A program made the translations under genes and the position numbers. The notes beneath the pieces were generated by a model, which ran no database searches, had not been told where the DNA came from, and saw only the letters and a program-made list of their open reading frames with translations. 64,000 bases of DNA, taken from the IMG/VR virus record IMGVR_UViG_3300028908_000007, positions 11,389 to 75,388 of that record; one strand, given 5' to 3'. Origin of the DNA: a virus. This document shows, one piece after another, positions 15,028 to 60,900 of this stretch; position 1 is the first letter of the stretch, and each line of letters opens with the position of its first letter.

Positions 15028-15093
15028 CTGTTAGTACGATTTGGTGTGCACGCCAATCGTCTTTTTTGTTCAATAATCTCCAGGAGAAACAAC

Positions 15094-20218: not shown

Positions 20219-20239
20219 CCACATATTACACATTCTTGT

Positions 20240-20270
20240 CCCGCCCTTCGGGGCGGGTGTGGCTTTTTTT
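20240..20270 (+). terminator. cUUCGg-loop terminator
   Basis: CCCGCCC-TTCG-GGGCGGG followed by a T-run. Confidence 0.85.
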
Positions 20271-20419
20271 CTTTATTTAGCGTATTTTTACATCCAGATG
20301 CCTATCCAAATATACCTCTAGGAGGCTCTCAGATGCGTTCTAAGGCGTTTTTAGACATCTACCCATACCTACCTACAGGGTAGGGGTCTTTAACGTCTTA
20401 AATGTCGTAGGGGAAAGAC

Positions 20420-20452
20420 TACCTCTGCGGACCAAAACGGCCCGCAGAGGTA
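20420..20452 (-). terminator. Hairpin downstream of the portal gene
   Basis: 11-bp stem TACCTCTGCGG/CCGCAGAGGTA. Confidence 0.7.
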
Positions 20453-20462
20453 ATAGGAGTAA

Positions 20463-22832: not shown

Positions 22833-22838
22833 ATAAAA

Positions 22839-24833: not shown

Positions 24834-24834
24834 G

Positions 24835-31208: not shown

Positions 31209-31889
31209 ATGGCAACACCTGTAACAGCCACAGAATTTAGCAGCGCTAATACCTTTAAGCTTATGTATGAGTGTCCTTCTACGAGCACTTATGCGATCGT
31301 AGCTGTAAAGGTACTTAATACAGATCCAACGAATAATGCTATTATACGCATTGCTGTATCAACACAAGCAACGACTGCGAACCCATCTCCAGCAAACGAT
31401 GAGTATATTGAATATGCTACCACTCTTGCACCAAAGACCGGTATGGAGAGGGGTAGTATCATTATGGCTCCTGGAGAGAAACTGGTAATCTGGTCTAATA
31501 CTTCAACAGTAGCGTTTAGAGTACATGGTTTGGAGAGAATTACCAGCAATCAGGCAGTGAGTGTGGCAAAATCCAGTCCATCTCAAGGAAGCTGGAATAC
31601 AATCTATACTACTCCTACAACAGCAGGAACAAAAACAGTAAACTATGGAACATACCATATCAATATTTTGAACAATGGCGGTAGTGCAGGCGATCTGGAT
31701 CTTGCCATTTCTCCAGCCTCTCCTCCACTGAATAAAACACTGATCGAACGCGAACAAACCCTCCAAGCCAACGGAGATGGTCTTATTCACACATGCAATA
31801 TCATGGTGCCTGGTGAGAAAGTATTGATCAAACCAACCATCGGTACTATGATTATTCGTGTGGCTGGTATCATGGATCTGAATCCATAG
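31209..31889 (+). CDS. Probable virion protein made of two tandem homologous beta-rich domains
   Basis: Internal duplication: IEYATTL..IMAPGEKLVI..FRVHG versus IEREQTL..IMVPGEKVLI..IRVAG. Confidence 0.7.
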   Translation: MATPVTATEFSSANTFKLMYECPSTSTYAIVAVKVLNTDPTNNAIIRIAVSTQATTANPSPANDEYIEYATTLAPKTGMERGSIIMAPGEKLVIWSNTSTVAFRVHGLERITSNQAVSVAKSSPSQGSWNTIYTTPTTAGTKTVNYGTYHINILNNGGSAGDLDLAISPASPPLNKTLIEREQTLQANGDGLIHTCNIMVPGEKVLIKPTIGTMIIRVAGIMDLNP

Positions 31890-40811: not shown

Positions 40812-40888
40812 GGGCCTTTAGCTCAGTTGGTTAGAGCAGTCGACTCATAATCGATTGGTCGCAGGTTCGAGCCCTGCAAGGCCCACCA
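40812..40888 (+). tRNA. tRNA-Ile2 (CAT anticodon, lysidine type); tRNA-Met less likely
   Basis: 77 nt; acceptor stem GGGCCTT/AAGGCCC, discriminator A, encoded CCA; loop CT-CAT-AA; GTTCGAG T-arm. C4:G69 and C5:G68 are present and the sequence resembles E. coli ileX; no initiator features. Confidence 0.88.
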
Positions 40889-40889
40889 T

Positions 40890-40974
40890 CGGGGTGTGGC
40901 GAAATTGGCAGACGCAAGGAACTTAAGATTCCTCGGTTTTTACCGTGTCGGTTCGAGTCCGACCACCCCGACCA
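40890..40974 (+). tRNA. tRNA-Leu (TAA)
   Basis: 85 nt; acceptor stem CGGGGTG/CACCCCG, discriminator A, encoded CCA; AGGAA-CTTAAGA-TTCCT anticodon arm; long variable arm; GTTCGAG. Confidence 0.95.
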
Positions 40975-40982
40975 TTGCCTAT

Positions 40983-41027
40983 TACTGTCTCCCTCGCCTA
41001 ACGGTGGGGGAGACAGTATTTTTTTTT
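40983..41027 (+). terminator. Terminator after the tRNA pair
   Basis: Stem TACTGTCTCCC/GGGAGACAGTA followed by a T9 run. Confidence 0.9.
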
Positions 41028-41068: not shown

Positions 41069-43051
41069 ATGCCTCTTCGCTACGAAGAATTTCAATTACC
41101 TACAGAAGGTCAAATCCTTTCAGACGTTCTGACAAAACAAGGAAGGTTGAGTAATTATACTCCAGACCTTTTAAACGGACAACCTATAAGTAATTACCTT
41201 ACAAAAGGAGTATTAGAAGAAAAAATAAAGAATACACCTAGAAAGGACTTTTTAGAATACTTTACTATTGATATTAGAGAACATACCGGGTATACAGATC
41301 CAGATGTGACTAGGACAGGGATATTAGCAACTGGTTATATAAGTGCCGATGGATTAAACGGACACTATGACGATGTATCTGGTGTAGAATGGAGATACAG
41401 ATATGTAGGACAAGATTGGATATATGAGAAATACCCATGGATACAGACATATATTACTGTTCCTCTCAATAAACCAGGAGCTACTGTAGAAGTACAATGT
41501 AGAGTACAATTTGGTACACATCAAAGTGCCTGGTCTGATACATTTACTTATACCTTAAGTATGACAAATGAAGTATTACCCATTCCTAGACTATGGAATT
41601 CAGAGATTACGGTAGATGGTAACTTTATTATTGATGTAGAAAATAAAGACTACTACAAAACTATAATTACTAGGTCTTATGTTTCTTTATATACGTTAGA
41701 TGGACGTTTTATGTATACTAGAAGTACTGCTATTGGTTTCGATCAATGTTACCTTCCTCCAAATGTACCTGCTGGAGAATACTACGCATTAACACGTTAT
41801 AGAACCGACGGTGCTAGAAACTATAGTCCTTTTGGGCTGGATAAAGTCTATATAAAAGAACGTGGTCGTAAATGCGTTATTGTCGATATGAAGAATACAA
41901 ACAAATGGGCACAACCTCCATACGATATGTTAGATGTTCGCTCTCCCTCCATATGCGCCTATGGTGAAGACGGTGACTTGGCAGTCGGTTTCAATGGTGG
42001 TTTAAACGCTGTAAACAATACGACTTTCCCGAATGACTATGGTTTTACTCATGTAACTATCTTAAACAAAGACAATGAAGTCGCAGAGATAATACCATTT
42101 GATGTAAAATGGCCTTCTGATATCGATCCCGCGTCAGGTCCTCCAAATTATACTATAAACAGAACTCCTATTTTATTAGGTCTTACCTATGAGGGAGGTG
42201 CGTTATATGCATTATGTATGGATTTGACAAATGCACCAGTAAGTGGGTCTATATATACTACAGTAATTTATAGATACAAGGCGGTGAAGGATACAACCTA
42301 TGAAACACATTGGGAGTTATTTAAAGTAGTCAATAGTCCTGCTGTAGGTGATTCATTTAAAGGATATACTATATGTCATTCATTTGTTGGATTAGGAAAT
42401 GGGTATATAGCTTGTAATCTTGGCAGTTTTACAGGAAGAACAAACTGGCTATATGTAATAAACACTAATACTGGTAATATACGAGCTACAGTAAACAGGA
42501 ATACGAATGGAGACTTACTGGCTACAGATTATAGGGGAACCCTTTATATATTGGATATCATTGGTAACAAAATGTACAAATCCACAGATGGTGGAGTAAC
42601 GATTACTCAAGTAACCTACACTAGCGGTACTCCTATTCCAGTAATTGGAAATACATATAATACATACGGATGGACTCCAATTGAAGTGTCGTCTTGTATT
42701 AGTGTTGCTAGCTCACAAGACGGACGTATAATTATTACACATCCAAGAGAAGTATTGGATAGAATACCTCAGATTCGTGGTTTTAATATACATAGGGGAT
42801 TTTGGCAGTATTATTACGATGCTGCGCACTATTATACAAACCAAACCAATATCAACCTAACGACACCTAGCCAGAATCATAACAACCTCAGAGGAGGTGA
42901 TAGCAAGTATCAATACAAAATAAATACAGCAGTTACCAATGGTAGTAGACTGTATTTGATAGGTGGAACTGGGTTTGTAAAAACAGTGACTTGGACTGAT
43001 GGTGGAAATCAAAACAAGCATTTTCCTGTTCTGAGGCAGTATAACGTTTAG
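41069..43051 (+). CDS. Tail-fibre-like protein, array member 1 (anchor motif, Fn3-like domains, beta-propeller)
   Basis: YTPDLLNG anchor; 'H...EWRY..VQCRVQ..SAWSDTFT' Fn3-like unit; beta-rich C-terminus with RLYLIGG. Confidence 0.7.
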   Translation: MPLRYEEFQLPTEGQILSDVLTKQGRLSNYTPDLLNGQPISNYLTKGVLEEKIKNTPRKDFLEYFTIDIREHTGYTDPDVTRTGILATGYISADGLNGHYDDVSGVEWRYRYVGQDWIYEKYPWIQTYITVPLNKPGATVEVQCRVQFGTHQSAWSDTFTYTLSMTNEVLPIPRLWNSEITVDGNFIIDVENKDYYKTIITRSYVSLYTLDGRFMYTRSTAIGFDQCYLPPNVPAGEYYALTRYRTDGARNYSPFGLDKVYIKERGRKCVIVDMKNTNKWAQPPYDMLDVRSPSICAYGEDGDLAVGFNGGLNAVNNTTFPNDYGFTHVTILNKDNEVAEIIPFDVKWPSDIDPASGPPNYTINRTPILLGLTYEGGALYALCMDLTNAPVSGSIYTTVIYRYKAVKDTTYETHWELFKVVNSPAVGDSFKGYTICHSFVGLGNGYIACNLGSFTGRTNWLYVINTNTGNIRATVNRNTNGDLLATDYRGTLYILDIIGNKMYKSTDGGVTITQVTYTSGTPIPVIGNTYNTYGWTPIEVSSCISVASSQDGRIIITHPREVLDRIPQIRGFNIHRGFWQYYYDAAHYYTNQTNINLTTPSQNHNNLRGGDSKYQYKINTAVTNGSRLYLIGGTGFVKTVTWTDGGNQNKHFPVLRQYNV

Positions 43052-43060
43052 GAATATCCG

Positions 43061-45058
43061 ATGGGGCGAATCAGAAGACAGAATACAGTATTTTCCAAAG
43101 ACGACTTACTTGGCTTGATTTCCAGTAAGAAAGTCTTGGATGCAAAAACCATAGACGGCTTTAGTGCTGGGGAATTCATGACCAAGGAAGAATGGTATAT
43201 GTGGATAAAGAATCTTTCCATGGAAGGAAGGGAATATGTTTCTGGAGCAAAAGTAGTTTACCCAGTACATGGAGATATTGACGTAGATGATTTATTTCAG
43301 ATAGAAGTACTTCCTAGTGGAGAATATAGTAATAATAAACACAGAGCTACTTCTTGGTATGTGTTTAAAGATCCAGGACTTACCAAACTACTAGATTGCA
43401 GTATAGAGGATGTAGTTAATCTTACTTCCTGGAGGCCTCATATGCGTGGTCTTCAAACAGGCTATTTGGTAGTAAAGATACATCACGACCTTATGAATAG
43501 TTGGTATAGCGTTCCCGTGCGATTTAAAACCAAGAGCGATTATACTAACATCTCAGCGCCTGAACCCTATATAGTAAAAGGAAGTACTAGTCTCAATAGA
43601 ACGATTGTGCGAATAGACGGGCGGTCATATGGAGAAAATCCTACTATAGATCCAGATAATGTAGATTGGGTATTATCCAAGAAAAGATTAAACGGCTATT
43701 ATGAGGTAGTGCGTAGTGAGTTAGATTCCACACAGTTTAAGAAATATATCGATATATGGTCTGGTGAATTAAAACCAAATACAGAAATACGTATAAAGAC
43801 AAGGTACCAGATTAACGGTAAAAAAGGACCATGGGGATATGTAGATTTTAAAATACCTTATAATGCAGTTTCGTATAAATATAAGAAGTTGATGAATACA
43901 CCATTAATTATACAACACATAGTACCACTTGGTGGTGATGAGTTTGTATTCTTTACTGGAGAAACTTCCTTAAAAAGAGGACCTATAGACATAGAGAGAG
44001 CTGGTAACGTATGTAGCGTATTTATATATAATGCCAAAACAGGAGATATTCGCTCACTTCCAAACCTACCCACAGCGATGCAGAAAGATTACGGGGTAGG
44101 ATATCATCCACGAGAGAATAGATTATATATCGTAGGTGGGTTTTCATTACAAGATTCTTTTTATCCGAACAGTATTAAACCTACCAAAGCATCTAGAGCT
44201 GTTTGGTATCTTGAATTAGATAGGGTATTAGGGAGAAACCATCCATATGTCAATGGCAAATATGGAAGAACAGAAGATACAGCCGTTTATAAACATCCGT
44301 CGAGTATGGAAAATGAAGCACAGTGGAAAGTATTTGGACAGCTTTACGATACAACGAGTGGAAAGAGTCCTATTGTAATAGAATTTACAAGAAGAGGAGT
44401 ATACAATCCTGCTACCAATAAATTGTACTTTATTGCTAGTCATAGTTGGAACTATGAGAACAACTCTACTTTTGATGATGGAAATAAAACTTACCTTATT
44501 GGTATAAACGCTAGTGGAAAATCTTATACAATAGATCCTTTTCCAACGACATATAATTCAAGACGCACAGCATTTACAAGACTTGCGGATGGTAGAGCTT
44601 TGGCTACTACTTTTCATCCAAGATTACCGAATAGTCCTAATGAAGCCCCATCAAATACAACAACATTTGTTACTAGTGATCCTACAGACTGGGAAGGTAG
44701 TTGGGTGCCTGCGCCTGCCAGACCTGGAGGTCCTGGCTTTCCAGCCACACATGGTGGATATATGGATACGACAACGGAAGGACTTACTCTCTTTATAGGA
44801 GACTATAACTATGGCGGGAGAGCAGACTTTGGAGTATTAACCAATTATGCCTGCCAATATGATTTTGTTCAAGATAAGTGGTATCTTGTTTCAAATATTC
44901 CGTTGGCTGGAGCAAATTCGATCTTGGCAGCTGGAGATGATTATTTTCTAATCGCTCAGCGGACAACTTCTGTATTTGGATTTAGTAATGGTAATCCAGG
45001 GGAATTTCCACATTCTGAAGCAAACACAAACATCATCAAGGTTTCTCTATGTACGTAG
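43061..45058 (+). CDS. Tail-fibre-like Fn3-Kelch protein, array member 2
   Basis: LDAKTIDG anchor; HRATSW..SWYS..RFKT; Kelch-like blades such as YNAKTGDIRSLPNLP, RLYIVGG and YDFVQDKWY. Confidence 0.75.
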   Translation: MGRIRRQNTVFSKDDLLGLISSKKVLDAKTIDGFSAGEFMTKEEWYMWIKNLSMEGREYVSGAKVVYPVHGDIDVDDLFQIEVLPSGEYSNNKHRATSWYVFKDPGLTKLLDCSIEDVVNLTSWRPHMRGLQTGYLVVKIHHDLMNSWYSVPVRFKTKSDYTNISAPEPYIVKGSTSLNRTIVRIDGRSYGENPTIDPDNVDWVLSKKRLNGYYEVVRSELDSTQFKKYIDIWSGELKPNTEIRIKTRYQINGKKGPWGYVDFKIPYNAVSYKYKKLMNTPLIIQHIVPLGGDEFVFFTGETSLKRGPIDIERAGNVCSVFIYNAKTGDIRSLPNLPTAMQKDYGVGYHPRENRLYIVGGFSLQDSFYPNSIKPTKASRAVWYLELDRVLGRNHPYVNGKYGRTEDTAVYKHPSSMENEAQWKVFGQLYDTTSGKSPIVIEFTRRGVYNPATNKLYFIASHSWNYENNSTFDDGNKTYLIGINASGKSYTIDPFPTTYNSRRTAFTRLADGRALATTFHPRLPNSPNEAPSNTTTFVTSDPTDWEGSWVPAPARPGGPGFPATHGGYMDTTTEGLTLFIGDYNYGGRADFGVLTNYACQYDFVQDKWYLVSNIPLAGANSILAAGDDYFLIAQRTTSVFGFSNGNPGEFPHSEANTNIIKVSLCT

Positions 45059-47010
45059 AACCATATAAAAGACCGGATATCACAGTTAGTGATATAACTC
45101 AACTCCTAGGAAATAACCAAGGACATGGAAAAGGATTGGATGCCGGTTCTTTGGAAGGACTTAGATTATCAGACTTTGTTTTGAAGGATGATGCTTTTAC
45201 AGGATCTGATATAAACTATACCACACACGATGATATTACAGAACCACCCATGGGTATTATAGAGCAAGATAATAATACATGTGTGTGGTTATTGACACAA
45301 ATACCAGAACATAATAAGAAGTATAATATAGAATTTGATACTCTTCGAGTTATCTATTACGATAGTTCACAAACTTACATACGATTTGTCGATTATAGTG
45401 CGTTATTCAATAAAGTACGTTTTATGGATAGTATAGATGGTCATAAGACCATGCTTACTGAATTGAATACAAACACTACGTATTATATACGTTTCTTCTA
45501 CTCTGATAGTCGTACTGGTTGGAGATCACACTACAGCGATTATATAGAAGTTAATACTACTGCTGATTATAATTATACAAAAGATCCTGAAATTACGTTC
45601 TATAATAATAAGAAAAAACAATCTACATATCCTTCCATAGGTGTCTCTGTAAATATCACAGATGACTTCAAAGGTGTTGGAGGGATACGAAAGATACAAT
45701 GTATCGTAATAGATAAAGAAACTACAGAAGTAGCATATTCAGACATACAAGGTCAACGAAGTGGAAATATACATATTCCTCCAGGTAAATTGGAACCTAA
45801 CACCGATTACATCATAGCTGTAAGATGGTTTAATGGATTTGTTTGGTCTAATTGGATAAGTGACACATTTACTACACATTATAAAGGAGTAATAAAAAGA
45901 TTATACGCATATACATACTATTCAAGTGGACTTAGCTATGTGGCAAATACCGATACAGCTACCTTTGATGATAGAGAGGGAATTGTAGCTACTTTTCCAG
46001 GACGACATGTTGCAGATAATAGAACAATAACTTCTATCTCTGCTAACATATCTCCGAAAATGTCATACTGGTTACGTAGAAGATCTTATCCAATTAATAG
46101 TAATACTGGTGTATACAATGTTACAGACCCTACTGGACCAGGTGTCATAGGAGCTGCTGCTGCGTTATATTACAAAAATGGTACTATAAAAAGAGCTATG
46201 ACTTATGGAGGTATTAACATAGGTAGTGGTTTTTTGGTTAGGAGACCACACATAGTTGAATATAACGGACTTAATATGTATACCGCTACCACCAGTACAG
46301 GAAGTTGGTTATCTACATGGGGTGTAGCATTTCATACACTTACTGGCGTATTAGACTACCAAGCAGCATACTTAATTGGTGGGGTAGCTGTAGGTGGAGA
46401 TGCAGCACCTCCTGCTACGAATCCCTATCTGTTTGGTACTGATGAAATGTCTGGGTTTTCAATAGTAACAAATATATACGAGGTTACAGAAACCGGTATA
46501 GTAAAACATATGAAAAAAGCAATAGATAGACCAACTTCTCATGCTGCGGCTACACTTGTAGATACTTTTAAAATTCTATATTTTGGAGGTGTAGATAAAT
46601 ATGGAACACCTTCTAAACGAGCATACCTGGTAGATGTGAAAGCACGTACAGTAACAAGGTTACCAGATCTTCCATTCCCTATCTACAATCATAGAGCAGT
46701 AACAGTACGAGGAGATAGAGTTATCGTATACGGAGGTGTTGTTTCTACTTTATACAATACAGCCACGGGTACTGATTACATCGTAAATGATCTGGTAGAT
46801 AATAGTGGTTGTGTTTATGATTATGACTGGAGGAGGGGAAAAATGGAAATTATTGATATCTTACCAGGCTTCAGAGAGCGTGGTATTATGGGAGTTCCCT
46901 ATGAAAACAATGTTGTTGTTCGAGGCGGTGGTAAATTCTCTACTGGAAGATCTGGAGATACTACCTATTCAAACTCAGCAGCCGAAATAACGTATGTTTA
47001 CGAGGTTTGA
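45049..47010 (+). CDS. Tail-fibre-like Fn3-Kelch protein, array member 3
   Basis: GKGLDAGSLEG anchor; LNTNTTYYIR and LEPNTDY..VRW..WSNW; Kelch blades FHTLT..YLIGG, HAAAT..ILYFGG and LPDLPFPIYNHRA..VIVYGG. Confidence 0.8.
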   Translation: MYVEPYKRPDITVSDITQLLGNNQGHGKGLDAGSLEGLRLSDFVLKDDAFTGSDINYTTHDDITEPPMGIIEQDNNTCVWLLTQIPEHNKKYNIEFDTLRVIYYDSSQTYIRFVDYSALFNKVRFMDSIDGHKTMLTELNTNTTYYIRFFYSDSRTGWRSHYSDYIEVNTTADYNYTKDPEITFYNNKKKQSTYPSIGVSVNITDDFKGVGGIRKIQCIVIDKETTEVAYSDIQGQRSGNIHIPPGKLEPNTDYIIAVRWFNGFVWSNWISDTFTTHYKGVIKRLYAYTYYSSGLSYVANTDTATFDDREGIVATFPGRHVADNRTITSISANISPKMSYWLRRRSYPINSNTGVYNVTDPTGPGVIGAAAALYYKNGTIKRAMTYGGINIGSGFLVRRPHIVEYNGLNMYTATTSTGSWLSTWGVAFHTLTGVLDYQAAYLIGGVAVGGDAAPPATNPYLFGTDEMSGFSIVTNIYEVTETGIVKHMKKAIDRPTSHAAATLVDTFKILYFGGVDKYGTPSKRAYLVDVKARTVTRLPDLPFPIYNHRAVTVRGDRVIVYGGVVSTLYNTATGTDYIVNDLVDNSGCVYDYDWRRGKMEIIDILPGFRERGIMGVPYENNVVVRGGGKFSTGRSGDTTYSNSAAEITYVYEV

Positions 47011-47013
47011 TCC

Positions 47014-48855
47014 GTGTCCATAAAATACGATTACGAAACAGTAGGTCCTGATGAACTTACTGTTCTTGGTATTGTAGCTGATTTAGACGATACTGGAAAT
47101 TATGACGCTGACTCCTTAGATGGGAAACACGGGGAAGATATACTACGAAAGGATCAATTACAAGAACTCATGGATGAGAAAGTAAATCGCTTTACTACGA
47201 CTACTGCATTAGTTACTCCAATAATTCTATCTCCAGCTAACGGTGCTTCTAACATTAAAGAAGTTATAATAGAGATTTCTGTTAAGGATTCTTGGAACGT
47301 AGATATTGATTTAATACAAAAAGATTTATACTGGGATGTAGAAATTGCTACCGATAGTGCTTTTACCAATATCTTTAGATCTATATATAACGATGCTGCA
47401 AATCTTCCAGTATGGCGTCCTGATCTATTGGATAATACGACATATTATGCAAGGGCACGGATAATACAAAATGGTATAAAAAGCAACTGGTCTCCTATAG
47501 TTACATTTACTACAGGGACTACGCAGTATGCAAAAATCACAAATGATTCTGCTAAAGCTATCCATAGGGAAGATAACTCCAGGACATCATCAGTGCCTGT
47601 TGTTAGAATACCTAGCGCAAATACTATTATAAAAAAGAATGTTGGTAACTATATTCGTACGGAAATTTCAGTATTTAAAAATAATAAAAGAGCAATGAAA
47701 TATGGTAGTGGTACTCCTAGTACTGCTACCACACCTCCAGACGCTGTATGGAACGATGTAGTAACCAATTCAACTTCTGGTATTTCATATATACTTATAG
47801 ATCCTACGGTTCTTGAAGCAGATACAGAATATTACTGTAAGATTCGGTATGTATATCAAGGTACGTCAGGAATTAGTGAAATAAAAACCAATGCTACTGG
47901 ATTTGTATTCAAAACTAAAAAGTACATTAGAGATGTATCGCATATTCAATTACCCACTTATTTTACAAAAGGGCTTTATACTGGTCCTGGTGTTACTATC
48001 CAAACAACACAACCTCCAGTAGGAAAAATCGATAGCACTACTATTGTAATGCAAGCACATATTAGTGCTGCTGAAACTATATTATATCGAATGGAGGTAA
48101 AACCAGAAGGATTTGTACCCTATAGAGTCATACCGAATACTAATGGTGTTTTACAACAAAAACAAGCGCTCTGTTATCTTGCATCTGGACAGTGTCTGAT
48201 GATTGATACTAGCACACTTGAGACGCATATATTGCATCTGTGGGGTGCTGTTCAACAAGTAGGATCATTGGAGGCTGTCTCTACACCATCCAATAGAAAA
48301 CATCCTGGATTGGTACGTTTGTATAATGGAGACATATATGCTATATACTCAGCACAAGGTGGTGTAAACGACAAGAAGTTAATGAAGTTTGATACTACTA
48401 CCAATACATGGAGTTCTGCTGGTTTGAATCAGGGATTTACAAAACGAGATGCCTTTACAATTGCCGCTATAGATGAACGATATTTTATGGTGTTTGGCGG
48501 TTATAATCCAGACGATAACACCAGACCTACATTCGCAGAGATATATGATTCTGTAGACAACCAATGGTCTATGACTCCTACCATACCTCAAATGGCATAT
48601 AATTATGCCTATAATGTAGGTAATGGTATTCCTGTAGAATTATACACAGGTATCGTAGCGTTCGTTGGAGTAGAAACAATACAAAACAACGCTGCAACAT
48701 ACGTATGGGATAACCACAAACAAACATGGACTTTTTACATAACAGACGATGGAGCTCTTGGTAGCGGAGGCGGTGGAGCTACATTGCATCCTGGCGAAGC
48801 ATATGGATTCTCAGGATACAAACTAATAACAAGCCTTGTCAAGGTGGAGTTGTAG
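47014..48855 (+). CDS. Tail-fibre-like Fn3-Kelch protein, array member 4
   Basis: YDADSLDG anchor; EIATDSAFTN..NTTYYARAR..SNWSP.VTFTT; Kelch blades FDTTTNTWS and MVFGG..AEIYDSVDNQWS. Confidence 0.8.
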   Translation: MSIKYDYETVGPDELTVLGIVADLDDTGNYDADSLDGKHGEDILRKDQLQELMDEKVNRFTTTTALVTPIILSPANGASNIKEVIIEISVKDSWNVDIDLIQKDLYWDVEIATDSAFTNIFRSIYNDAANLPVWRPDLLDNTTYYARARIIQNGIKSNWSPIVTFTTGTTQYAKITNDSAKAIHREDNSRTSSVPVVRIPSANTIIKKNVGNYIRTEISVFKNNKRAMKYGSGTPSTATTPPDAVWNDVVTNSTSGISYILIDPTVLEADTEYYCKIRYVYQGTSGISEIKTNATGFVFKTKKYIRDVSHIQLPTYFTKGLYTGPGVTIQTTQPPVGKIDSTTIVMQAHISAAETILYRMEVKPEGFVPYRVIPNTNGVLQQKQALCYLASGQCLMIDTSTLETHILHLWGAVQQVGSLEAVSTPSNRKHPGLVRLYNGDIYAIYSAQGGVNDKKLMKFDTTTNTWSSAGLNQGFTKRDAFTIAAIDERYFMVFGGYNPDDNTRPTFAEIYDSVDNQWSMTPTIPQMAYNYAYNVGNGIPVELYTGIVAFVGVETIQNNAATYVWDNHKQTWTFYITDDGALGSGGGGATLHPGEAYGFSGYKLITSLVKVEL

Positions 48856-50889
48856 ATGGGAATTTTCAAAAGAGATGATTTAGTAAACACTATAGTAAAC
48901 TACGCATTACAAGCTGTAAAGAATACCCCACTGGATGTAGATTATGCCTCAGATACCGATTCTACGTATTTACAAACTACTGAGGCTGCTTTTAGACTCT
49001 ATCAGAGTGTTGAGTTCCATGGTTATTTTCCAGAGCTTATTCTTAAGGTAAAAAGAGTAGACGGAATTTATAAAGCAGCTCTTGCTCCCGTTTGGACAAC
49101 TGCTGTAAATTTGGAAGTTAAACACAATATTACAGAATGGCAGTTATCGACTACGAATACATTTAGTAATGGTCCAAATACATATTCCTTTATTACCAGA
49201 CATCCCGATGATTTACTGGAAATCGATATACCACAATCCTTCTTACTTACTAATCCTACGTCTACTATTTATCTTAGAGCTAGAATTGCATCTGGTAATA
49301 TTTCGTCTGATTGGAGTAATACGGCTACACTTCCACCGATACAGGCAATAACAGATCCATCAAATGCTATTGTTAGGAATAACTTAATACCTTACGATGT
49401 ATACCTCAGATTTCGATATGTAATTGGTGGAATAGAAGGCGAGTATTATATTACAGATATTAGTGGCGCTGAATTGACAGATTCCTCGTTTAGTAGTGAT
49501 AGAATTTCTCATGTAGAAATTGCTGTAGAAAAACCAGGAGAAGGGATACTATTTAGTAGAAAAACTACTGGCGGAAATGTCCTTATTAGGACACCAAAAG
49601 AGATTGACAAAGAAGGACAGTATAGAATATGGTATCGTGTATGGAGTGGTAAACATAAGACCATTTGGAGATACAATAATATATATGTGGATAGGGTACA
49701 ACCGACTGTTGTTACAAAGATGTATAATCGCTGGGGTAAGGCTTATGGAGTAATAACAGAAGTATTTGATAGTATTGTATTTGGAGCAGGACGAGCAATA
49801 CGAGATTTAGATGGATCTGTGTACAGCGAAGAAAATAAAATGTTTATACATCCCGTATATGAGACAGAAAATGATTACTTTATGGCAAACAACGGACTTC
49901 CTGCTGGCGCTACCTGGGGTGGTAGTTTTGTGGCGTCGCATCATCCAACAGCACCGCATACGGATATAAAGAAAGGGGTAATATATGATACTCCAAATCT
50001 GGATGTAAGTGGTGCCAACTTCACTACGCCGACGCGTAGAAGATTTCGTAAATTTAATTTACAGGATAATGCTGCTGGAAATGTAATATACCAGAGTAGA
50101 AATTATACCAACTTTTCTGTTAGAAGAACGTATGTACAAAGTTGTTATATCGGTACTAGGAATATGGAATCTAACCCAACATACCAAAACGCCGCTGCAT
50201 TTCCAAACTCTGATGGCTCGATATATGCCAGTAATTTTATATTTGTCTGTGGTGGACTTTACAGACCAAATAACTCCAACGATGTTTATCCAGCTAGAAT
50301 GGCAAAACTCATTAGAAGAAATCTAGCAAATAATGGTTGGGACACTATCCCTCTCCCAGGAATGCCTAGATACCTATGGCATCATTCAGTAACCGATGTA
50401 GGTATAGGTGCGTTAGTTACAGGCGGCTATTACTGGCCATATGATCCGGCTGTTACACCTCCAGTTTATGGAGAGGATGACGAAGACACTGTGCGTATGT
50501 CCAATCGTACCTACTTATGGCGCCCGAATAAATCTGGCGCTGATTATTGGACAGGACATTGGTATAGAATGGCAGATCTTCCATTTCCTATATCCAGCCA
50601 TTGTATGGAGCATTTACGGGATGATACTGTATTGATTATAGGCGGTCAAATAACAGAACATAATAAATATTTGGAAGGTAAATACTCATCTCCTATTATC
50701 TTTGAATTCAATTATGTAACAGGAGAGTATAACATAATAGGATATCTTCCAGAACCGCTGTACGCGGCTGCTTCTGTGAAAGATCAGTTAGGGAGGATTT
50801 GGATATTCGGAGGAGAAGGTCTGAGAGCTCGACCTGGATCATATACGAATGTCCAACCAATTCGCAATGGTCTTCGGTTGATTTATTAG
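48856..50889 (+). CDS. Tail-fibre-like Fn3-Kelch protein, array member 5
   Basis: HNITEWQLSTTNTF..YLRARI..SDWS; Kelch blades IFVCGG, HHSVT..LVTGG, MADLPFPISSH..LIIGG and IWIFGG. Confidence 0.8.
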   Translation: MGIFKRDDLVNTIVNYALQAVKNTPLDVDYASDTDSTYLQTTEAAFRLYQSVEFHGYFPELILKVKRVDGIYKAALAPVWTTAVNLEVKHNITEWQLSTTNTFSNGPNTYSFITRHPDDLLEIDIPQSFLLTNPTSTIYLRARIASGNISSDWSNTATLPPIQAITDPSNAIVRNNLIPYDVYLRFRYVIGGIEGEYYITDISGAELTDSSFSSDRISHVEIAVEKPGEGILFSRKTTGGNVLIRTPKEIDKEGQYRIWYRVWSGKHKTIWRYNNIYVDRVQPTVVTKMYNRWGKAYGVITEVFDSIVFGAGRAIRDLDGSVYSEENKMFIHPVYETENDYFMANNGLPAGATWGGSFVASHHPTAPHTDIKKGVIYDTPNLDVSGANFTTPTRRRFRKFNLQDNAAGNVIYQSRNYTNFSVRRTYVQSCYIGTRNMESNPTYQNAAAFPNSDGSIYASNFIFVCGGLYRPNNSNDVYPARMAKLIRRNLANNGWDTIPLPGMPRYLWHHSVTDVGIGALVTGGYYWPYDPAVTPPVYGEDDEDTVRMSNRTYLWRPNKSGADYWTGHWYRMADLPFPISSHCMEHLRDDTVLIIGGQITEHNKYLEGKYSSPIIFEFNYVTGEYNIIGYLPEPLYAAASVKDQLGRIWIFGGEGLRARPGSYTNVQPIRNGLRLIY

Positions 50890-50898
50890 GATTTCTTA

Positions 50899-52959
50899 AT
50901 GGGTAGAGAAAGAAAAGGTAAATTTATTAATTGGCTTCCTCAAACATCGCGTGGTGGTGTTTTACACAATTCAGGTGCAGGAGCCATAGTCAATGCCGAT
51001 AAGATACGTTCGACTTTAGTAACACAATTAGCCAGAGAAAGTATAGTTGATTCAGATATCAATAATCTCGTTAATAGCACCAATACTTACTTTATAAAGA
51101 AGCCAGAAATACTTACACCTACAGATGGACAGGTATTAACTGGAAATGATAAGATATTGCTTGTACCTCCAATACTAGGAAACTATGTAACCGGACAACA
51201 TATTGCTACACATTGGAGAATATTAAATAGTTCTTCTAACTCTCTTGCCAATTCTATCTATAACGAAGTGGTGTATGGAGAGGGTTTGGTAAGTCTTCCT
51301 CTTCCTGAAGGATTATCTCCAAATACAGATTATTGGGTAGTAGCAAAAATACACATAGCTTCTAAAGAAAATGAATTCGATAACTGGCTACCTAGTGAAT
51401 GGTCAAATATTGTTAGATTTAGAATTGATAATAATGCGACATTACAACCCATTCCAGACATAGAAGAACTCATACCTTACGAAAATGCCGACCATATAAA
51501 TAGATTTCGTTTTAAAGAAAATAATAAGGAAACATATGCAGCGGGTTCTACTTATAAAGTATTAAAGGTACGTGCTGAGATTACTTCAAACGAAATGTCA
51601 CGACCTAATAATAGTAATGTAATTCTGATTAACAAAACCATAACCAATTATGGAGTGGATCTTACTTTCCCGGAATATGGAAATACTGATCCAGTAGAAA
51701 CAGAATTAGCCAGAAGAATATTAGAAAAAGAAAATACAGCCCGATGGAAAGGTATTTTTACATTCTGGTATGAAGACTTAAGTGGGAATAAAGGACTACC
51801 AATAACTAAGAAAGCACAACTAGTATATAAAGAACCAAAATTACTTAACCCATTTCCATACGCTCTTAAGGTAGCCAAAAATACTACGAGTATGGCCACA
51901 CTTATCGGTAGTGGCGCTGATAAAATAGGTCATGGATCAAATGCTGATAGATCAAGAAACATAATGCTGATACGATATGATTATACTACTGCAAATGGAG
52001 GCATTACTCGTTTCTGGATGTATGATAAGGTACGGAATACTTGGCTATGGAGAGGATCTCATCCAGAAACAAATTACTATACAAATATGCATAATATTGC
52101 TTTTATAAACTCAGAAGAAGTATTGATTGCAGGAGGTTGTAAAGATAACACCTCATTAGCCAATCCTACAGTTAGTAATGTATTAAATACTACCTATGTT
52201 TTCAATGTACGTATAAATACATGGACACAGAAAGCTAACTTACCTACGCGGTTATTCTCCTCCAATAGTGTAATTACGAAGAACGGCGACATATACATCG
52301 TAGGTCTGGATAGAAACAATTCCTATAGATTAATGATAATACATTATGATCTAGCAACAGATACACATACTGTTGTTTATACAGAAACCAACACAACACC
52401 AAACGTACAAGTATACAACGTTCTTCCATTTAAAAATGGTTTTATCTATAGTCTTACCAAAAAATATGCGGGTAATTCGGATCTTAGAACACACTTCTAC
52501 TATGTTGATATCACTGGTACTTCGTATAATGCAACTTATACACTACTGAATTCGTTAAATGATCCTACGCAGAGAAGACATAGATATCCTCTAGCACCTG
52601 CACCAGGCGGTGGTTTCTTGATGTATGGATACCTCCGTAGTGCTTTACCAAACCAGGCTTCTGGTGCGGCTAATGTCGACCAAATGTCTTCCCAAGGTAA
52701 ACTATTTATGCTTACAGAAGATCGATCTGCGTCATCACAGCTTTCTATTAAACCAATACTTATGGTTCCTGGTGCTACAAAGAAACCTACAAACTTATTG
52801 AATAATTACCCAATGGCACCTATCAATGGTTTTCTTGAACCATATGACAACTATGGAGGTTATATATTAGCTGGAGGATTGTCTTATAGTAATTTGGAAA
52901 CAGGTGGTGTTGGTAAGAATCTATCAAAGTCTCCTGAATTGTGGTTAGTGTACCTATGA
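50899..52959 (+). CDS. Tail-fibre-like Fn3-Kelch protein, array member 6
   Basis: VNADKI anchor remnant; KPEILTP..HIATHW..LSPNTDYWV..SEWS..RF; Kelch blades YDKVRNTW, VLIAGG and NTWTQKANLP. Confidence 0.8.
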   Translation: MGRERKGKFINWLPQTSRGGVLHNSGAGAIVNADKIRSTLVTQLARESIVDSDINNLVNSTNTYFIKKPEILTPTDGQVLTGNDKILLVPPILGNYVTGQHIATHWRILNSSSNSLANSIYNEVVYGEGLVSLPLPEGLSPNTDYWVVAKIHIASKENEFDNWLPSEWSNIVRFRIDNNATLQPIPDIEELIPYENADHINRFRFKENNKETYAAGSTYKVLKVRAEITSNEMSRPNNSNVILINKTITNYGVDLTFPEYGNTDPVETELARRILEKENTARWKGIFTFWYEDLSGNKGLPITKKAQLVYKEPKLLNPFPYALKVAKNTTSMATLIGSGADKIGHGSNADRSRNIMLIRYDYTTANGGITRFWMYDKVRNTWLWRGSHPETNYYTNMHNIAFINSEEVLIAGGCKDNTSLANPTVSNVLNTTYVFNVRINTWTQKANLPTRLFSSNSVITKNGDIYIVGLDRNNSYRLMIIHYDLATDTHTVVYTETNTTPNVQVYNVLPFKNGFIYSLTKKYAGNSDLRTHFYYVDITGTSYNATYTLLNSLNDPTQRRHRYPLAPAPGGGFLMYGYLRSALPNQASGAANVDQMSSQGKLFMLTEDRSASSQLSIKPILMVPGATKKPTNLLNNYPMAPINGFLEPYDNYGGYILAGGLSYSNLETGGVGKNLSKSPELWLVYL

Positions 52960-55076
52960 GCAAATATAATTCCCCAGATCCGAGAGCGTTAGAAAGGGAT
53001 GGTAAGTTACTAACTGCCGGACAAAATAAATTAGATACAGAATTAATCGATAGAATATTGGACAGGGATTGGTTCGATAGTGTTATGATGTCAAAAGGTC
53101 TGACAATGGAGGATGAGTTAGACAAAGTAAACAGGTTTTGGAATACTGCTAGAGTAAAATTTACAGACAGTGGTCCGGGTGGTAATATAGGGATAAACCC
53201 AAGACCACAATTTACACCATATGCAGATATACGAGAACCTGGAACGAAGGCAGGAAGAAGTGAAGTATCGCCAGGGAATGTAACAGGCGATACCGGAATG
53301 GGTATATACTATTCCGAAGCAATTGATGACAATGCAAATATTGTATACCTGCGCTTCGGAGTACCATCTTTTAACAGTATGTTTTCCTTCCTTACAAAGG
53401 CTATTGATCCAAATATAGCTAGAATAGCAAATACTGGAAGAAGTAGTGTAGCCCATAATATAGGTAAAATCATAGGTAGTGTATTGGGTTTAGTAAAGTT
53501 TACAAAGGTGGCTGTATATTTTTTAACCGGTCGATTTGTTTTAGGCAGTATAGGAACTGTATTACCCATTCAAAGTAGTAAATACTATACACTAAAACCA
53601 ACAATGTATTTATATTGGTCGGCTGTAAATAGTTTGTTAGCACAGATGTCTATAAACCTTGGCTTTATTAGTCCTACAGCTGTAAGAGATGAGGATCCGA
53701 TCAAAGGAGCTTCTCTGGCAGCTAGTCCTGAAATGATGGAGTTATTAAAGGAGATGTTTCCTAACTTGGTTACATCTAATAACTTTATCGATATGTATGC
53801 CGTTGCAACCAGAGCACAACGTCTAGCTAACCAAAGAATATTGAAAGAGTTAGATGTGTTGGATCAGGGAAACGCAAGCACGGATCAATATGTAGGACTG
53901 ATTGACGAGCTATTGAATAAGAAGGTGGTGGATGAGGAAAATCCTACCTTTCTTTCTTTCTTAAATAGAGAACTAAATTCAAGAGCAGCCAAGGCTGAAA
54001 TTATTCCTGCTTTAAATAAGGAAAGATCAGAAAACATTACTTTAGAAAAAGATCCACTTTCTCCTCCTGAAGTTGAGGATGAGCAAGGAATACTGGATTG
54101 GATCAATAGCGGTGTAAAAGAATACGTAAGTGAAATGGCTGAGGTATATAAAGCAGGATGGAGAGAAGGTGGACAACATGCTATATTTCGTGTTGACCAT
54201 GTAGATTCTGTTTCTGAAAGCTTTAGCACTTCAGTATCCGATAGTCCGATAGTAAGCATAGTAAATTCTGGTGCTAGTAGTTCTCGAAATATGAAATTTA
54301 CATTGGCAGGAGGAAACGTAGGAGACGGTCCAATTGTAGACCTTATAGAGGGTCTTGTAGGATCCGCAGTAGACCTCGCCAAAGGTGTTATTGAGGGATT
54401 TACATTTGGCGTTAGTAATATTGTAACAGCACTGCTCGGTGGTGGATATATAGACGCACCACAACAATGGGAAAATAGTAGTGTTACATTACCGAATCTA
54501 AGCTATAGCACAAAGCTAATATCTCCCTATGGAAATCAAGTATCACAACTTATGAATATATACATGCCTTTAGCAATGTTTATGGCGGCAGCATTACCAT
54601 TAGCTACTGGTAAGAATAGTTATACTTCACCATTTCTATGTAATCTAGAACACCCAGGGAGACAGTCAATTCCACTTGGGATTATTACTAGTCTGTCAAT
54701 TACCAGAGGAACTAGTAATCTTTCCTTTACACAAGATAACAGAGCATTGGCATACGATGTCTCTTTTACAGTTACTGATCTTTCATCTATAATGTTTATG
54801 CCTATAGATACTGGTGGTTTGTTTGGTGTCGATATGGCTCTAGATGAAGATCACATCTTATCGAGATATATGGCCACTATTACAGGTAGAGATGTTTCCA
54901 GTATGTTCTATACTACTACTAGGGCAAAGATACGTTTAGCTAGAGAATTATACAAAATAGACAAACTTCGATCTCCTGCTGGCTTAGCAATGGCTATTAA
55001 TGATAGCATTCCTGGCAGATTTCTTAGAATCTTTGCACCGAAATCCAGCATACTTAGAGGCGTCCAAGATCAATAG
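52956..55076 (+). CDS. Conserved phiKZ-like virion baseplate/tail protein (gp101-like)
   Basis: KFTDSGPGGNIGINPRPQFTPYADIR, GMGIYYSEAIDD, RFGVPSFN, YYTLKPTM, LISPYGN, SYTSPFL and ITRGTSN. Start placed at MSKYN (ATGA overlap). Confidence 0.8.
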   Translation: MSKYNSPDPRALERDGKLLTAGQNKLDTELIDRILDRDWFDSVMMSKGLTMEDELDKVNRFWNTARVKFTDSGPGGNIGINPRPQFTPYADIREPGTKAGRSEVSPGNVTGDTGMGIYYSEAIDDNANIVYLRFGVPSFNSMFSFLTKAIDPNIARIANTGRSSVAHNIGKIIGSVLGLVKFTKVAVYFLTGRFVLGSIGTVLPIQSSKYYTLKPTMYLYWSAVNSLLAQMSINLGFISPTAVRDEDPIKGASLAASPEMMELLKEMFPNLVTSNNFIDMYAVATRAQRLANQRILKELDVLDQGNASTDQYVGLIDELLNKKVVDEENPTFLSFLNRELNSRAAKAEIIPALNKERSENITLEKDPLSPPEVEDEQGILDWINSGVKEYVSEMAEVYKAGWREGGQHAIFRVDHVDSVSESFSTSVSDSPIVSIVNSGASSSRNMKFTLAGGNVGDGPIVDLIEGLVGSAVDLAKGVIEGFTFGVSNIVTALLGGGYIDAPQQWENSSVTLPNLSYSTKLISPYGNQVSQLMNIYMPLAMFMAAALPLATGKNSYTSPFLCNLEHPGRQSIPLGIITSLSITRGTSNLSFTQDNRALAYDVSFTVTDLSSIMFMPIDTGGLFGVDMALDEDHILSRYMATITGRDVSSMFYTTTRAKIRLARELYKIDKLRSPAGLAMAINDSIPGRFLRIFAPKSSILRGVQDQ

Positions 55077-55085
55077 CGCAAAAAA

Positions 55086-55120
55086 TACACCCCACTCCCG
55101 AGATCTGGGAGTGGGGTGTA
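55086..55120. terminator. Hairpin between convergent genes
   Basis: Stem TACACCCCACTCCC/GGGAGTGGGGTGTA; the preceding A-run gives a U-tail on the - strand. Confidence 0.85.
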
Positions 55121-55122
55121 TA

Positions 55123-57945: not shown

Positions 57946-60900
57946 ATGGATATTGTTGGTTTATTAGATCCTAGCGATGGGGGTAATTTCCTTACCAAAC
58001 GCCGCTTTGTAGAAGAACTTAGAAAAATCGTCCTTAAAGAATTTGGATATGACAGCATTGATGATCTGCTTTCTTATTCAGGTACTATTTTTGGGGTAAT
58101 ATCTCCCACTGTAAATGGTGTATCAAATAAAGAAATAGAAGATCTTATATCAAATATTGGTTTAGTAACACTAATTCAAAATACAGATAACAATACCTAT
58201 GTAGTACGCATCGATGATCCAGGATCATTATCGGAGGTATATGATAATGTATCTAATGGGAAGTTTGACGTATCATTCTTTAAAATAGACAGCAGTAGTG
58301 GGAGCGGTAGTTCTTTTACTATCAATAAGCCGAGTATAGTAGGTCTGAATGGATTAACGTTAGAAGGGTCGTCATTTGGAACTTCTTCAGTAGCCACACC
58401 TTCTCACGACTCCAGTGACTGGGAGATTGCTTCTGATGCTAGCTTTACAAACTTAATAGTTAATAACTATGGAGATACTACAAATCTCACAACACTATCT
58501 TTAGATACTTCTATAATCGATTTAGGAGTTACATATTATGCCAGAGTACGGTATCATTCTGGTGCTACTGTTTCTGACTGGTCTGATGGTTTTACATTTA
58601 CTATTACAGATAGTATTATAAAACCGTCTATCATATCCGTAGACAATGGTAGAGAAGTAACCGCATCTGCTTTTTCAACTAACTCTGGGTATGGTTTTCC
58701 TCACGATTCCAGCGATTGGGAAGTTGCTCTGGATGCTGGTTTTACAAATATAGCTTATAGTAGCTATTCTGATAATATTCATCTTACTGAAATTGTTCTT
58801 ATAGGACTTACACAGAATACTGACTATTATCTCAGAGTTCGGTATAGGTCCGGTAACATAGTATCAGCCTGGTCTGATGCTTATAGTTTCAATAGTCTGG
58901 TATATTATCCCACACCTATATTACTGTATCCTAGTAGTAATGATACTTTTCCATATAATAACAGAGTGATATCGCATTATCCAGACGGATATAATGTTAT
59001 AGTCGATAAATACTTTGGAGATCCCTCAGTAAGTCGTCTCCATTTCAATATAAAAACCAGCACAGATAATGGTGCTACCTGGAATGTATTGGGAGGTGGT
59101 TATAGGAACTATAATCCTACAGGGTTGTATAACTTTCCTTTGAATTTACAACATGGTGAAGTTAAACTTTATAATATACAACTTAGGTGGTATGGCGCGA
59201 CAGGATACACTCCCTGGACGGATAACATCGTACTTGTAAATACTACCAATGATCTTATATCGGGAGCTTCTGTAAACTACCTGAATTATGATAATTCGTT
59301 ATATCCAAACTTTCCTGATAGTGTAAAGGATGTTTACCGATACTTTATGGAACCTACACTGGTATCTGGGAGTGTAGAAGCAATACAACATCAGTTTACA
59401 AGGGACAGGAGTTTTACTTCTGTTGATATTGATTATACATATAATGGAACAGATTATAGCGATCCTCTCTTTAATCTATACACATCTCCACACCATCAGG
59501 TAAGGATTTATAATACTTTACTTAAGAATGTCTTTGTAGATGAAGATGGAAATGGTCATAATGACCCGATCTACTATAGATCCAGAGTAAAGGTAGATGG
59601 AGTATGGCAGAGATGGAGTGTCTTATTATACACACAGAGAACTGGTACAACTTTTATTAATCAACCTACATTCCAGATACCAACGGAAGGTGCTATATTT
59701 AATAAAAATATCTTACGTTTATTTTGGAACCAAGATCGCTATATAGCAACTTCGAATCGACCGTACCATATGAAAATAGCAGGATATGAATACGTTATAG
59801 GTACTTCTGTAGATGTTAATGGAGATATTACGAACATTATAGAGCACGAGTATTTAAAACCAGGAGAACCCGATAGTGTAAGCAACAACGGTAGTTTATC
59901 TGATATTACTTTCAACATAGCACCAAGTCAGTTTTCTCCAAATACGACCTACTATATAAAAGCACGTGTAATATATGATTATTGTTTAGACACACCGTCG
60001 CAGTATAATGCCATACAACCTTATGATAATAGTAAGATCTATCACAGAGGTCCATGGTCCCCGGTAAGATCATTTTCTACGGATAGTTCCTTTACGAGTT
60101 TTTCTCCAATAGATGACTTTATGATCTTTGGAGAAGATAACGAGCTGGGTATTCCTCAGAACGTTTCTTTCTTTTCTAAGAAAGTTTCTATTGGATTACC
60201 TACTGGAACATACTCCAATGATGCTAGAAAACGAATATTAGAAACACTGATATACGATAGTAATGATAATCTAATACTTGGTAAGTTAAAATCAACTAGG
60301 GTACAAGGTATGTTTAGCAGTACTTCTGCATCAGACTCTGCTTATAATACCACACAAATACCATACGATCATACTTTTCTACATTTACAGAAAGGAGAGA
60401 CATATAAGGTAAGATATAGATATCTAGGCAATGGAGACGATAGTTCTCCAAACACATACCCATATGACCATGTCAGTCCTTGGGGTGAGAAGACATTTAC
60501 TGTAAATAGAGACTCAGATAGCAGAACACTGTATCCAATTGCTCCGTTCTCGTCTGATGTAGTAAAGGATATCTTTTATGTAGGAAACAATACAGTATAT
60601 GTTATAGCGACTTCCGGTAGCTATAATCTTAAAGTATATGCTTTAGACATGGCTACAGGTACTTGGACTCAAAAAGCATCACTACTGAATACAGTATGGA
60701 CTGTATGGTATCGGGATACACCACTTGCCTATAATCCAACACATAACAGAATAGAAAGTATATCTACTATAAATGGAGAACTTGGGAAAATTCGTGCATA
60801 TGACATAGCCACGGATACTTGGTCTGTTATCCATGACTTTAGTAGCACTTGGCCTGAACTGGCATGTAATAAATTCATGCACAGTCAGTGGTTGGGAGGA

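Follow-up and report, generated by a model that had tools for sequence, protein, structure and literature searches.

A six-gene array of candidate Fn3–propeller tail-fibre subunits coupled to a baseplate gene in a phiKZ-like jumbo phage

We analysed a 64,000-nucleotide (nt) stretch of viral DNA, hereafter the window, which spans positions 11,389 to 75,388 of the 75,388-bp IMG/VR virus record IMGVR_UViG_3300028908_000007 (CheckV completeness approximately 29%). The subject of this report is an array of six consecutive + strand genes within the window, whose products combine a short N-terminal motif, fibronectin type III (Fn3)-like units and, in several members, a Kelch propeller. Judged from its genes, the source virus is a deep-branching phiKZ-like jumbo phage; the window codes for split beta subunits of RNA polymerase, together with a major head protein and a polymerase that are both of phiKZ type, and its proteins are at best only about 30% identical to those of cultured phages. 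Numbered 5′ to 3′ along the + strand, the members are m1 (41069–43051; 660 amino acids, aa), m2 (43061–45058; 665 aa), m3 (45049–47010; 653 aa), m4 (47014–48855; 613 aa, with a GTG start), m5 (48856–50889; 677 aa) and m6 (50899–52959; 686 aa). The junctions from m1/m2 to m5/m6 measure, in order, +9, −10, +3, 0 and +9 nt, a Shine–Dalgarno-like purine run lies upstream of every open reading frame (ORF) of the array, and base composition is uniform across the six members (GC 0.36–0.38). The original prediction, made from the sequence alone, described six coupled genes of near-equal size that share no long DNA identity; both points were borne out, with proteins of 613–686 aa, junctions between −10 and +9 nt and no DNA repeat in the array longer than 29 nt.

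The limits of the transcription block are marked by two terminator-like hairpins. On the 5′ side, a strong intrinsic-terminator-like hairpin on the + strand (40983–41018; 16 pairs followed by a run of nine T) ends the upstream tRNA unit, and so forms the 5′ boundary of the block containing the array. On the 3′ side, a bidirectional terminator-like hairpin (55085–55121; 15–16 pairs) begins nine bases past the end of a gene homologous to phiKZ gene 182, which encodes a baseplate protein. No terminator-like hairpin was found between these two, and because nothing comparable separates them, m1–m6 and the gp182 homologue constitute a single block of seven genes. The coupling is direct, as the ATG of the gp182 homologue (52956) overlaps the stop codon of m6 in the sequence ATGA; the earlier claim that the array runs straight into a conserved baseplate gene without an intervening hairpin was therefore correct. 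The tRNA unit, located directly 5′ of the terminator and the array, comprises tRNA-Met(cat) and tRNA-Leu(taa) (40812–40974, + strand, detected by ARAGORN), which are spaced by 1 nt and lie in a region where the local GC of 0.42 is above the window average.

The most robust feature shared between members is an Fn3-like unit. A jackhmmer search seeded with m4 residues 59–170, run against the 122 stop-to-stop ORFs of the window and seven distant database hits, converged on a unit of approximately 105 residues at equivalent positions (residues ~57–180) in m2–m6. The unit occupies residues 57–160 of m2 (profile E value 1e-25; hhalign probability of the Fn3 family profile 98%), 56–173 of m3 (7e-15; 96%), 59–170 of the seed protein m4 (hhalign 99.7%), 58–161 of m5 (5e-15; 96%) and 60–179 of m6 (3e-6; 88%). 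Next in rank came m1 (E 0.037), followed by unrelated ORFs of the window from E ~1.2; the hhalign probability for m1 was 3%, and the unit in this member, at about residues 76–166 (E 0.013–0.037), is marginal. The AlphaFold2 (AF2) model of m4, based on an alignment of 10 distant relatives and paralogs, had an overall predicted local distance difference test (pLDDT) score of 42 and was confident at residues 65–170 alone (pLDDT 70–89). Compared with Fn3, Rha78A-N and PhoD-N domains (VIA), the m4 unit gave Z scores of 9–10.5 and root-mean-square deviations of 2.3–3.6 Å over 91–112 residues. This fold agrees with the Pfam families carried by relatives of the unit, namely PhoD_N, Ig_Rha78A_N, Pur_ac_phosph_N and fn3, with PhoD_N, Ig_Rha78A_N and fn3 scoring above threshold. 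The original prediction had proposed about two Fn3-like units per protein: the first stands for m2–m6 and is marginal in m1, and a second is hinted at by a weak signal in m2–m4 (E 0.008–0.03, compared with 0.6–0.9 in controls). Of the structure predictions that had been suggested as a check, those run on m1 and m4 yielded the single Fn3 domain of m4, with pLDDT values of 33.5 and 42, respectively, otherwise.

The C-terminal heads are of the Kelch type in at least half of the array. Three members scored above the Pfam gathering scores: m4 for Kelch_4 (28.6 versus 21.6), Kelch_6 (27.4 versus 25.3) and Kelch_1 (22.8 versus 20.1), m5 for Kelch_4 (22.2 bits versus 21.6), and m6 for Kelch_4 (24.1 versus 21.6) and Kelch_1 (22.1 versus 20.1). 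Below the gathering scores, m3 matched PF24681 (E 2e-6, 27.6 bits versus a cutoff of 50) and m2 matched Kelch_6 (E 0.0015, 18.9 bits versus 25.3). The Kelch repeats lie at about residues 494–627 of m3, 421–613 of m4, 455–600 of m5 and 369–501 of m6. Among PDB chains, m4 matched Keap1 (1e-5) and a designed Kelch protein (6e-16); m4 and m6 also had weak profile matches to Kelch PHROGs of unknown function (8229, 12615 and 16216), with phrog_12615 and phrog_16216 being those matched by m6. The ESM Atlas model of m2 gave template-modelling (TM) scores, by row, of 0.74–0.76 to Kelch/NanM clusters over approximately 322 aa, which is a lead rather than proof; its best whole-length neighbour was a viral cluster of unconfirmed identity, with a length of 771 aa (that of phiKZ gp131) and a TM score of 0.50. 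No RCC1 family was found among the Pfam matches of the six members at E ≤ 1.

The head of m1 is more elusive. This protein matched nothing in Pfam, PHROG or PDB, a PDB search with the m1-family profile was empty, and comparison of that profile with the other C-terminal domains of the array gave an hhalign probability of 1.3%. Two remote metagenomic homologues of m1 were found among 1.8e9 representatives, P0015 and P0016, both of 638 aa and with 25% and 17% identity. In the AF2 model of m1, for which these two proteins made up the alignment, the C-terminal ~400 aa are all-beta at a pLDDT of 33.5, and the ESM Atlas neighbours of m1 are Fn3-plus-propeller proteins (TM 0.33–0.38, a weak lead). Of the Kelch propellers anticipated for members 2–6, those of m4–m6 pass the Pfam thresholds, those of m2 and m3 fall below them and are probably of the Kelch type as well, and a propeller in m1, which had been expected from the common plan, is not established.

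In its clearest form, the N-terminal motif is a tag, DAxxL(D/E)G (residues 27–38), that precedes an acidic–aromatic pair; the two together fall within residues 27–45 of m2, m3 and m4, and in this form the tag is absent from the rest of the window. The tag reads LDAKTIDG in m2 (residues 26–33), LDAGSLEG in m3 (30–37) and YDADSLDG in m4 (30–37), and is degenerate in m1 (YTPDLLNG, 30–37), m5 (LDVDYAS, 26–32) and m6 (VNADKI, 31–36), so that the motif was proposed with good reason for the first group and overstated for m5 and m6. At the same position, the m1 relatives P0015 and P0016 carry IDADNIGS and FDVDRVGT, tags that are closer to the canonical form than that of m1. A profile of the m1-family N terminus ranked m4 next (E 0.005), then m6 (0.15) and m3 (1.9), each in collinear register. 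Helices are predicted after the tag at residues 41–54 of m1 and 46–60 of m4 (pLDDT < 50). According to the original prediction, the sequence LDADxLDG recurs in phage tail-fibre proteins; tblastn of phages with the 72-residue N terminus of m4 returned noise only.

Direct similarity between the members is close to nil. Pairwise BLASTP detected only m3–m5 (3e-5) and m5–m6 (0.011), both in the Kelch region, and neither hhalign (single-sequence or self-repeat) nor jackhmmer searches started from Kelch blades added anything beyond these two pairs. All six members share the order and register of their modules, with the Fn3 unit beginning at residue 56–76 in each. Taken with the Fn3 profile, the Kelch matches, the tag and the similar sizes, this supports the proposal that the genes of the array follow one modular plan.

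The array has few detectable relatives. Megablast and tblastn searches of m1–m6 against 50,697 phage records found no homologue and one marginal Kelch match (m4), and no member had a significant tblastn match to any cultured phage genome. Scans of IMG/VR and JGI metagenomes with m1, m4, the m1-family alignment, P0015 and P0016 returned nothing, as did homologous-protein searches with m2 and with the C-terminal part of m4. Two sets of ORFs were considered as relatives and rejected: the ~650-aa ORFs with which the window opens encode beta subunits of RNA polymerase and a helicase, and a 543-aa ORF upstream of gp182 homologues (L009 and L010), considered as a lone array member, is an RNA polymerase beta subunit. 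The Fn3-unit subfamily itself occurs in metagenomic proteins of 680–1020 aa that have varied N termini and propellers; P0011 pairs the Fn3-like unit with an FG-GAP propeller, and P0010 pairs it with DUF5122. Within the window, the m4-seeded unit was found outside the array only in a 1290-aa ORF (57946–61818, + strand), in three copies (residues ~140–220, ~225–317 and ~1203–1290) that are closest to the unit of m4. This ORF lacks the tag and has no Pfam Kelch match and no PHROG match; its product may represent a longer fibre that belongs with the array.

One metagenomic relative is particularly informative. P0008, an 808-aa protein encoded on a 23-kb contig from the ENA, consists of an N-domain of the phiKZ gp131 type, three Fn3-like units and an uncharacterized C terminus (phrog_19111) that has no Kelch match. 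Its N-domain is 37% identical to residues 8–159 of phiKZ gp131 (E 1.8e-29) and matches phrog_2163 and phrog_13857, and its Fn3-like unit is 40% identical to that of m4 (E ~1e-12). As P0008 fuses the Fn3 subfamily to a gp131-type N-domain, phiKZ-type fibres do use the unit as a module of the stalk. By its domain composition P0008 is a natural chimera, showing that fibre families exchange modules.

The last gene of the block (52956–55076, + strand) corresponds to the baseplate ‘spacer’ gene of phiKZ, gp182: its product matches phrog_3181 (5e-150) and the PDB chain 9xqs_K, PHIKZ182 (4e-86), and is 30% identical to phiKZ gp182 over 677 residues (4e-93). In phiKZ, gp182 is a hexamer whose ‘spacer’ ring separates the tube initiator, gp88, from the hub, gp101 (PMC13250141). 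The solved homologues of this product bear clashing depositor names, ‘PHIKZ182’, ‘Tail tube initiator complex protein gp203’ (11lx_H) and ‘Capsid decorator gp77’ (36za); this third name looks at odds with the first two.

Other components of a phiKZ-type baseplate are encoded elsewhere in the window. A distant homologue of phiKZ gp130 (19034–20218, + strand; phrog_3337, E 4e-10, a family that phiKZ gp130 itself matches at 1e-150) lies convergent to the portal gene, an arrangement shared with phiKZ, in which gp130 is the outer-baseplate protein beneath which the fibres attach. A homologue of the baseplate wedge gp128 (22839–24833, + strand) is followed after 1 nt by a homologue of gp139 (24835–25659, + strand; 31% identity, 5e-37; phrog_3315, 2e-63), which in phiKZ is the outer peripheral baseplate band linking the fibre platform to the wedges. 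Further phiKZ homologues in the window correspond to gp129 (portal), gp164 (spike), gp165, gp152 and gp149. The presence of gp130, gp139, gp128 and gp164 homologues implies that a phiKZ-type fibre platform exists in this phage. Since the gp128 homologue abuts the gp139 homologue, whereas phiKZ places gp130–gp138 between the two, the gp131–gp138 segment, including the fibre paralogs, is absent from its usual place; BLASTP and tblastn with gp131 and gp133–135 found no gp131-like gene at the syntenic site or elsewhere in the 75 kb. The gp128–gp130 block (19034–25659) is inverted relative to phiKZ, with the gp130-like gene on the + strand, the portal gp129-like gene on the − strand and the wedge gp128-like gene on the + strand. 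Two further ORFs lie near these genes: a 226-aa ORF just past the gp164 homologue (31209–31889) has weak matches to tail fibre PHROGs (phrog_11338, 1e-7; phrog_693, 3e-7), and an ORF of 1153 aa between the polymerase and the gp130 homologue (15046–18507), which has no PHROG match, sits where phiKZ has gp124.

On balance, we favour a model, drawn from sequence comparison, where the array encodes the distal host-binding subunits of baseplate tail fibres, built as ancient and extremely diverged duplicates, or at least on one modular plan, and is the functional counterpart of phiKZ gp131–135. We arrive at the tail-fibre reading because the block holds a core baseplate gene, because P0008 fuses the same Fn3 subfamily to a phiKZ-type fibre domain, and because the phiKZ fibre platform is present. 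The detection of a Kelch protein, CBB_552, in the virions of another jumbo phage also supports it. The six genes share a single transcription block with the gene for the baseplate spacer. In this model, each protein would comprise a ~60-residue attachment segment at the N terminus, made up of the tag and a short helix, a spacer of one, probably two, Fn3-type beta-sandwiches, and a C-terminal beta-propeller of approximately 300–400 residues, of the Kelch type in m4–m6, probably so in m2 and m3, and unproven in m1. The common N-terminal segment would dock the proteins at the tail periphery on the outer baseplate, and the differing top faces of the propellers may bind different host surface ligands, probably carbohydrates.

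The closest precedent is provided by phiKZ itself, in which each of twelve peripheral fibres consists of six N-terminal segments of gp131-like type and a six-helix bundle docked beneath gp130, the segments being drawn from the paralogs gp131, gp133, gp134 and gp135 (PMC13250141). The original prediction set this family aside as being of different architecture, which is inaccurate, as phiKZ gp131 ends in a 7-bladed propeller (PDB 4gbf) that is the proposed host contact (PMC13250141). Across phiKZ-like phages, there are 2–6 paralogs of the gp131 N-domain per genome, with varying C-terminal parts. Paralog sets that combine a shared anchor with variable heads, propellers included, are thus already known for phiKZ and the Chimalliviridae; of the proposal that a common anchor carries different heads, the shared modular plan stands and the novelty is less than was assumed, although the version encoded here is new in sequence. 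Like the array, phiKZ gp131–135 are paralogous virion genes clustered in tandem on the + strand, whose products have the N-terminal part in common and diverge in their C-terminal heads, and for which an adsorption role acting from the outer baseplate has been proposed, as we propose for the array in a window that contains gp130 and gp139 homologues.

The two sets also differ. The gp131 N-domain of ~160 aa is lacking from the array: hidden Markov model and hhalign comparisons of m1–m6 with seven gp131 orthologues gave E ≥ 2.5 and probabilities < 1%, with P0008 as the positive control for the profile (7e-35), and a PHROG scan of m1–m6 gave no match to phrog_2163 or phrog_13857. P0008 shares the Fn3 subfamily with the array but has the canonical gp131 N-domain that the array members lack. 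The stalk is made of Fn3 spacers in the array and of the NPH motif in gp131. The Kelch-type heads of the array would typically have six blades, whereas the gp131 head has seven, and m1–m6 had no sequence similarity to the gp131 propeller (4gbf), with C-terminal AF2 parts at pLDDT < 50. The array encodes six near-equal proteins of ~650 aa, compared with one of 771 aa, three of ~460 aa and one of 110 aa in phiKZ. Finally, the array has the gp182 homologue as its neighbour and is separated from the gp130 homologue by ~21 kb, whereas the phiKZ fibre cluster is divergent from gp130 and located between gp130 and gp139.

Comparable themes are found in other phages. The jumbo phage vB_PcaM_CBB encodes the Kelch proteins CBB_550, CBB_552 and CBB_554, and CBB_552 is the one found in virions. 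These resemble the array in being Kelch-type propellers in a small jumbo-phage cluster, but CBB belongs to the Rak2-like lineage, unlike the array phage, and neither a shared tag nor an Fn3 spacer has been described for its Kelch proteins. Tandem arrays of multicopy, diverged propeller proteins also occur in the Rak2-like/Asteriusvirus jumbo phages phAPEC6 and 121Q; phAPEC6 has eleven such RCC1-like proteins, for which the published reading is DNA condensation. In contrast to the Kelch-type heads of the array, the propellers of phAPEC6 and 121Q have the RCC1 fold, lack an Fn3 spacer and belong to another phage family. The adsorption systems of phage CBA120 (TSP1–4), phage phiK64-1 and phage phiKp24 (hyperbranched fibres) place several receptor-binding proteins (RBPs) of different specificity on conserved N-terminal anchor modules. 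Those RBPs are trimeric beta-helix depolymerase tailspikes with defined anchor domains, whereas the array heads are propellers. We infer that the array may function like the gp131 set and these multi-RBP systems, yet it falls outside all of these families by sequence tests.

How the six proteins would be arranged on the virion is a separate question. The suggestion that each might occupy one position of a six-fold baseplate does not fit the published phiKZ structure, which has six chains per fibre at 12 sites (PMC13250141). That structure instead offers an analogy in which the six proteins, one copy each, would form a hetero-hexameric fibre through their N-terminal helices, so that each site would show six different Kelch heads. 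The six paralog-derived segments and six-helix bundle of the phiKZ fibre (PMC13250141), the presence of exactly six genes whose translational coupling favours equal dosage, and the helix-prone segments after the tag in m1 and m4 all argue for such an assembly. However, the array's N-terminal segments are very short and show no sequence relationship to the gp131 N-domain, the helix predictions are of low confidence, and the number six may be a coincidence given the range of gp131-N paralogs per genome; we consider this arrangement rather improbable. An extended version, in which the lineage has replaced gp131-type subunits with the six Fn3–Kelch proteins, one each, in a hetero-hexameric stalk on the gp130/gp139 platform at about 12 sites, is more speculative again, and we attach little probability to it.

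Other readings concern the function and origin of the array as a whole. The proteins could be virion-associated accessory adhesins or decoration proteins that bind glycans or debris weakly and reversibly and are not the primary receptor binders, similar to Ig/Fn3 decoration proteins, the DUF7941 fibre cloud of Goslar or the multicopy propellers found in Rak2-like phages. Fn3 and Ig-like modules are common in accessory decoration proteins, Goslar carries fibre systems in addition to its tail fibres, multicopy propellers of unclear role recur in jumbo phages (the eleven RCC1-like proteins of phAPEC6 and the Kelch proteins of CBB), and the 71% of the genome that is unsequenced may hold a conventional gp131 set. 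This reading is nonetheless unlikely in view of the tight coupling of the array to a core baseplate gene, the occurrence of the Fn3 unit in a gp131-type fibre in P0008 and the absence of a gp131-like gene from the conserved site beside the gp130 homologue. A non-structural role is less plausible still. Kelch repeats are a classical protein-interaction module and poxviruses encode many Kelch proteins, so the array might act through protein–protein interactions inside the infected cell. However, the Fn3 spacers, the tag and the kinship to fibre-type metagenomic proteins fit extracellular adhesins, the block is shared with a baseplate gene, and a Pfam scan of the six members found no BTB or other intracellular adaptor domain; we judge such a role very unlikely. 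With regard to origin, the six genes might be separately assembled mosaics of shuffled Fn3 and propeller modules whose common plan is convergent. Pairwise identity is at noise level, the C-terminal part of m1 is unrelated to the others by any sequence test, and relatives of the Fn3 unit are joined to at least three other propeller types and to several N termini, which points to free shuffling. Set against this are the near-equal sizes, the identical order and register of modules with a common Fn3 start, the weak collinear N-terminal similarity, the m3–m5 and m5–m6 similarity in the Kelch region and the even GC content; independent assembly is accordingly a doubtful account, and descent of the array by duplication from a common gene appears the better one.

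Several observations weigh against our preferred reading of the array as tail-fibre subunits. No member has a gp131-type N-domain or a match to the gp131-family profiles. In the distant relatives L007, L009, L010, RVTF4 and phiKZ, what lies upstream of gp182 is gp180, an RNA polymerase subunit, and/or gp181, the giant tail lysin, and not an array. Structural and non-structural genes interleave in phiKZ-like genomes, which makes operon context weak evidence. The phage has no cultured relative, and common descent of the array members is not demonstrable by pairwise similarity. AF2 was confident for one Fn3 domain only, and its models gave no dependable view of how many blades the propellers have, of a second Fn3 unit or of how m1 folds. 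The contig represents only part of the genome, and a conventional gp131 set may be encoded elsewhere; the array would in that case be accessory and the gp131 set the principal fibre.

Host recognition by jumbo phages is poorly understood, and the 2026 structures of phiKZ and Goslar leave the distal fibres unmodelled. If the array has replaced the gp131-type subunits and its products co-assemble, one of each, each attachment site would display a fixed bouquet of six propeller lectins, giving the phage a multi-specific panel of binding heads on a transplantable anchor. If the array is the fibre set of this deep-branching phage, the ‘paralog bundle’ design of fibres would predate the gp131 family and exceed it in plasticity, and Kelch propellers on Fn3 stalks could serve as fibre heads docked by a very short tag. 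Such a tag would represent a compact handle with which to swap binding modules in laboratory studies of phage–host interactions.

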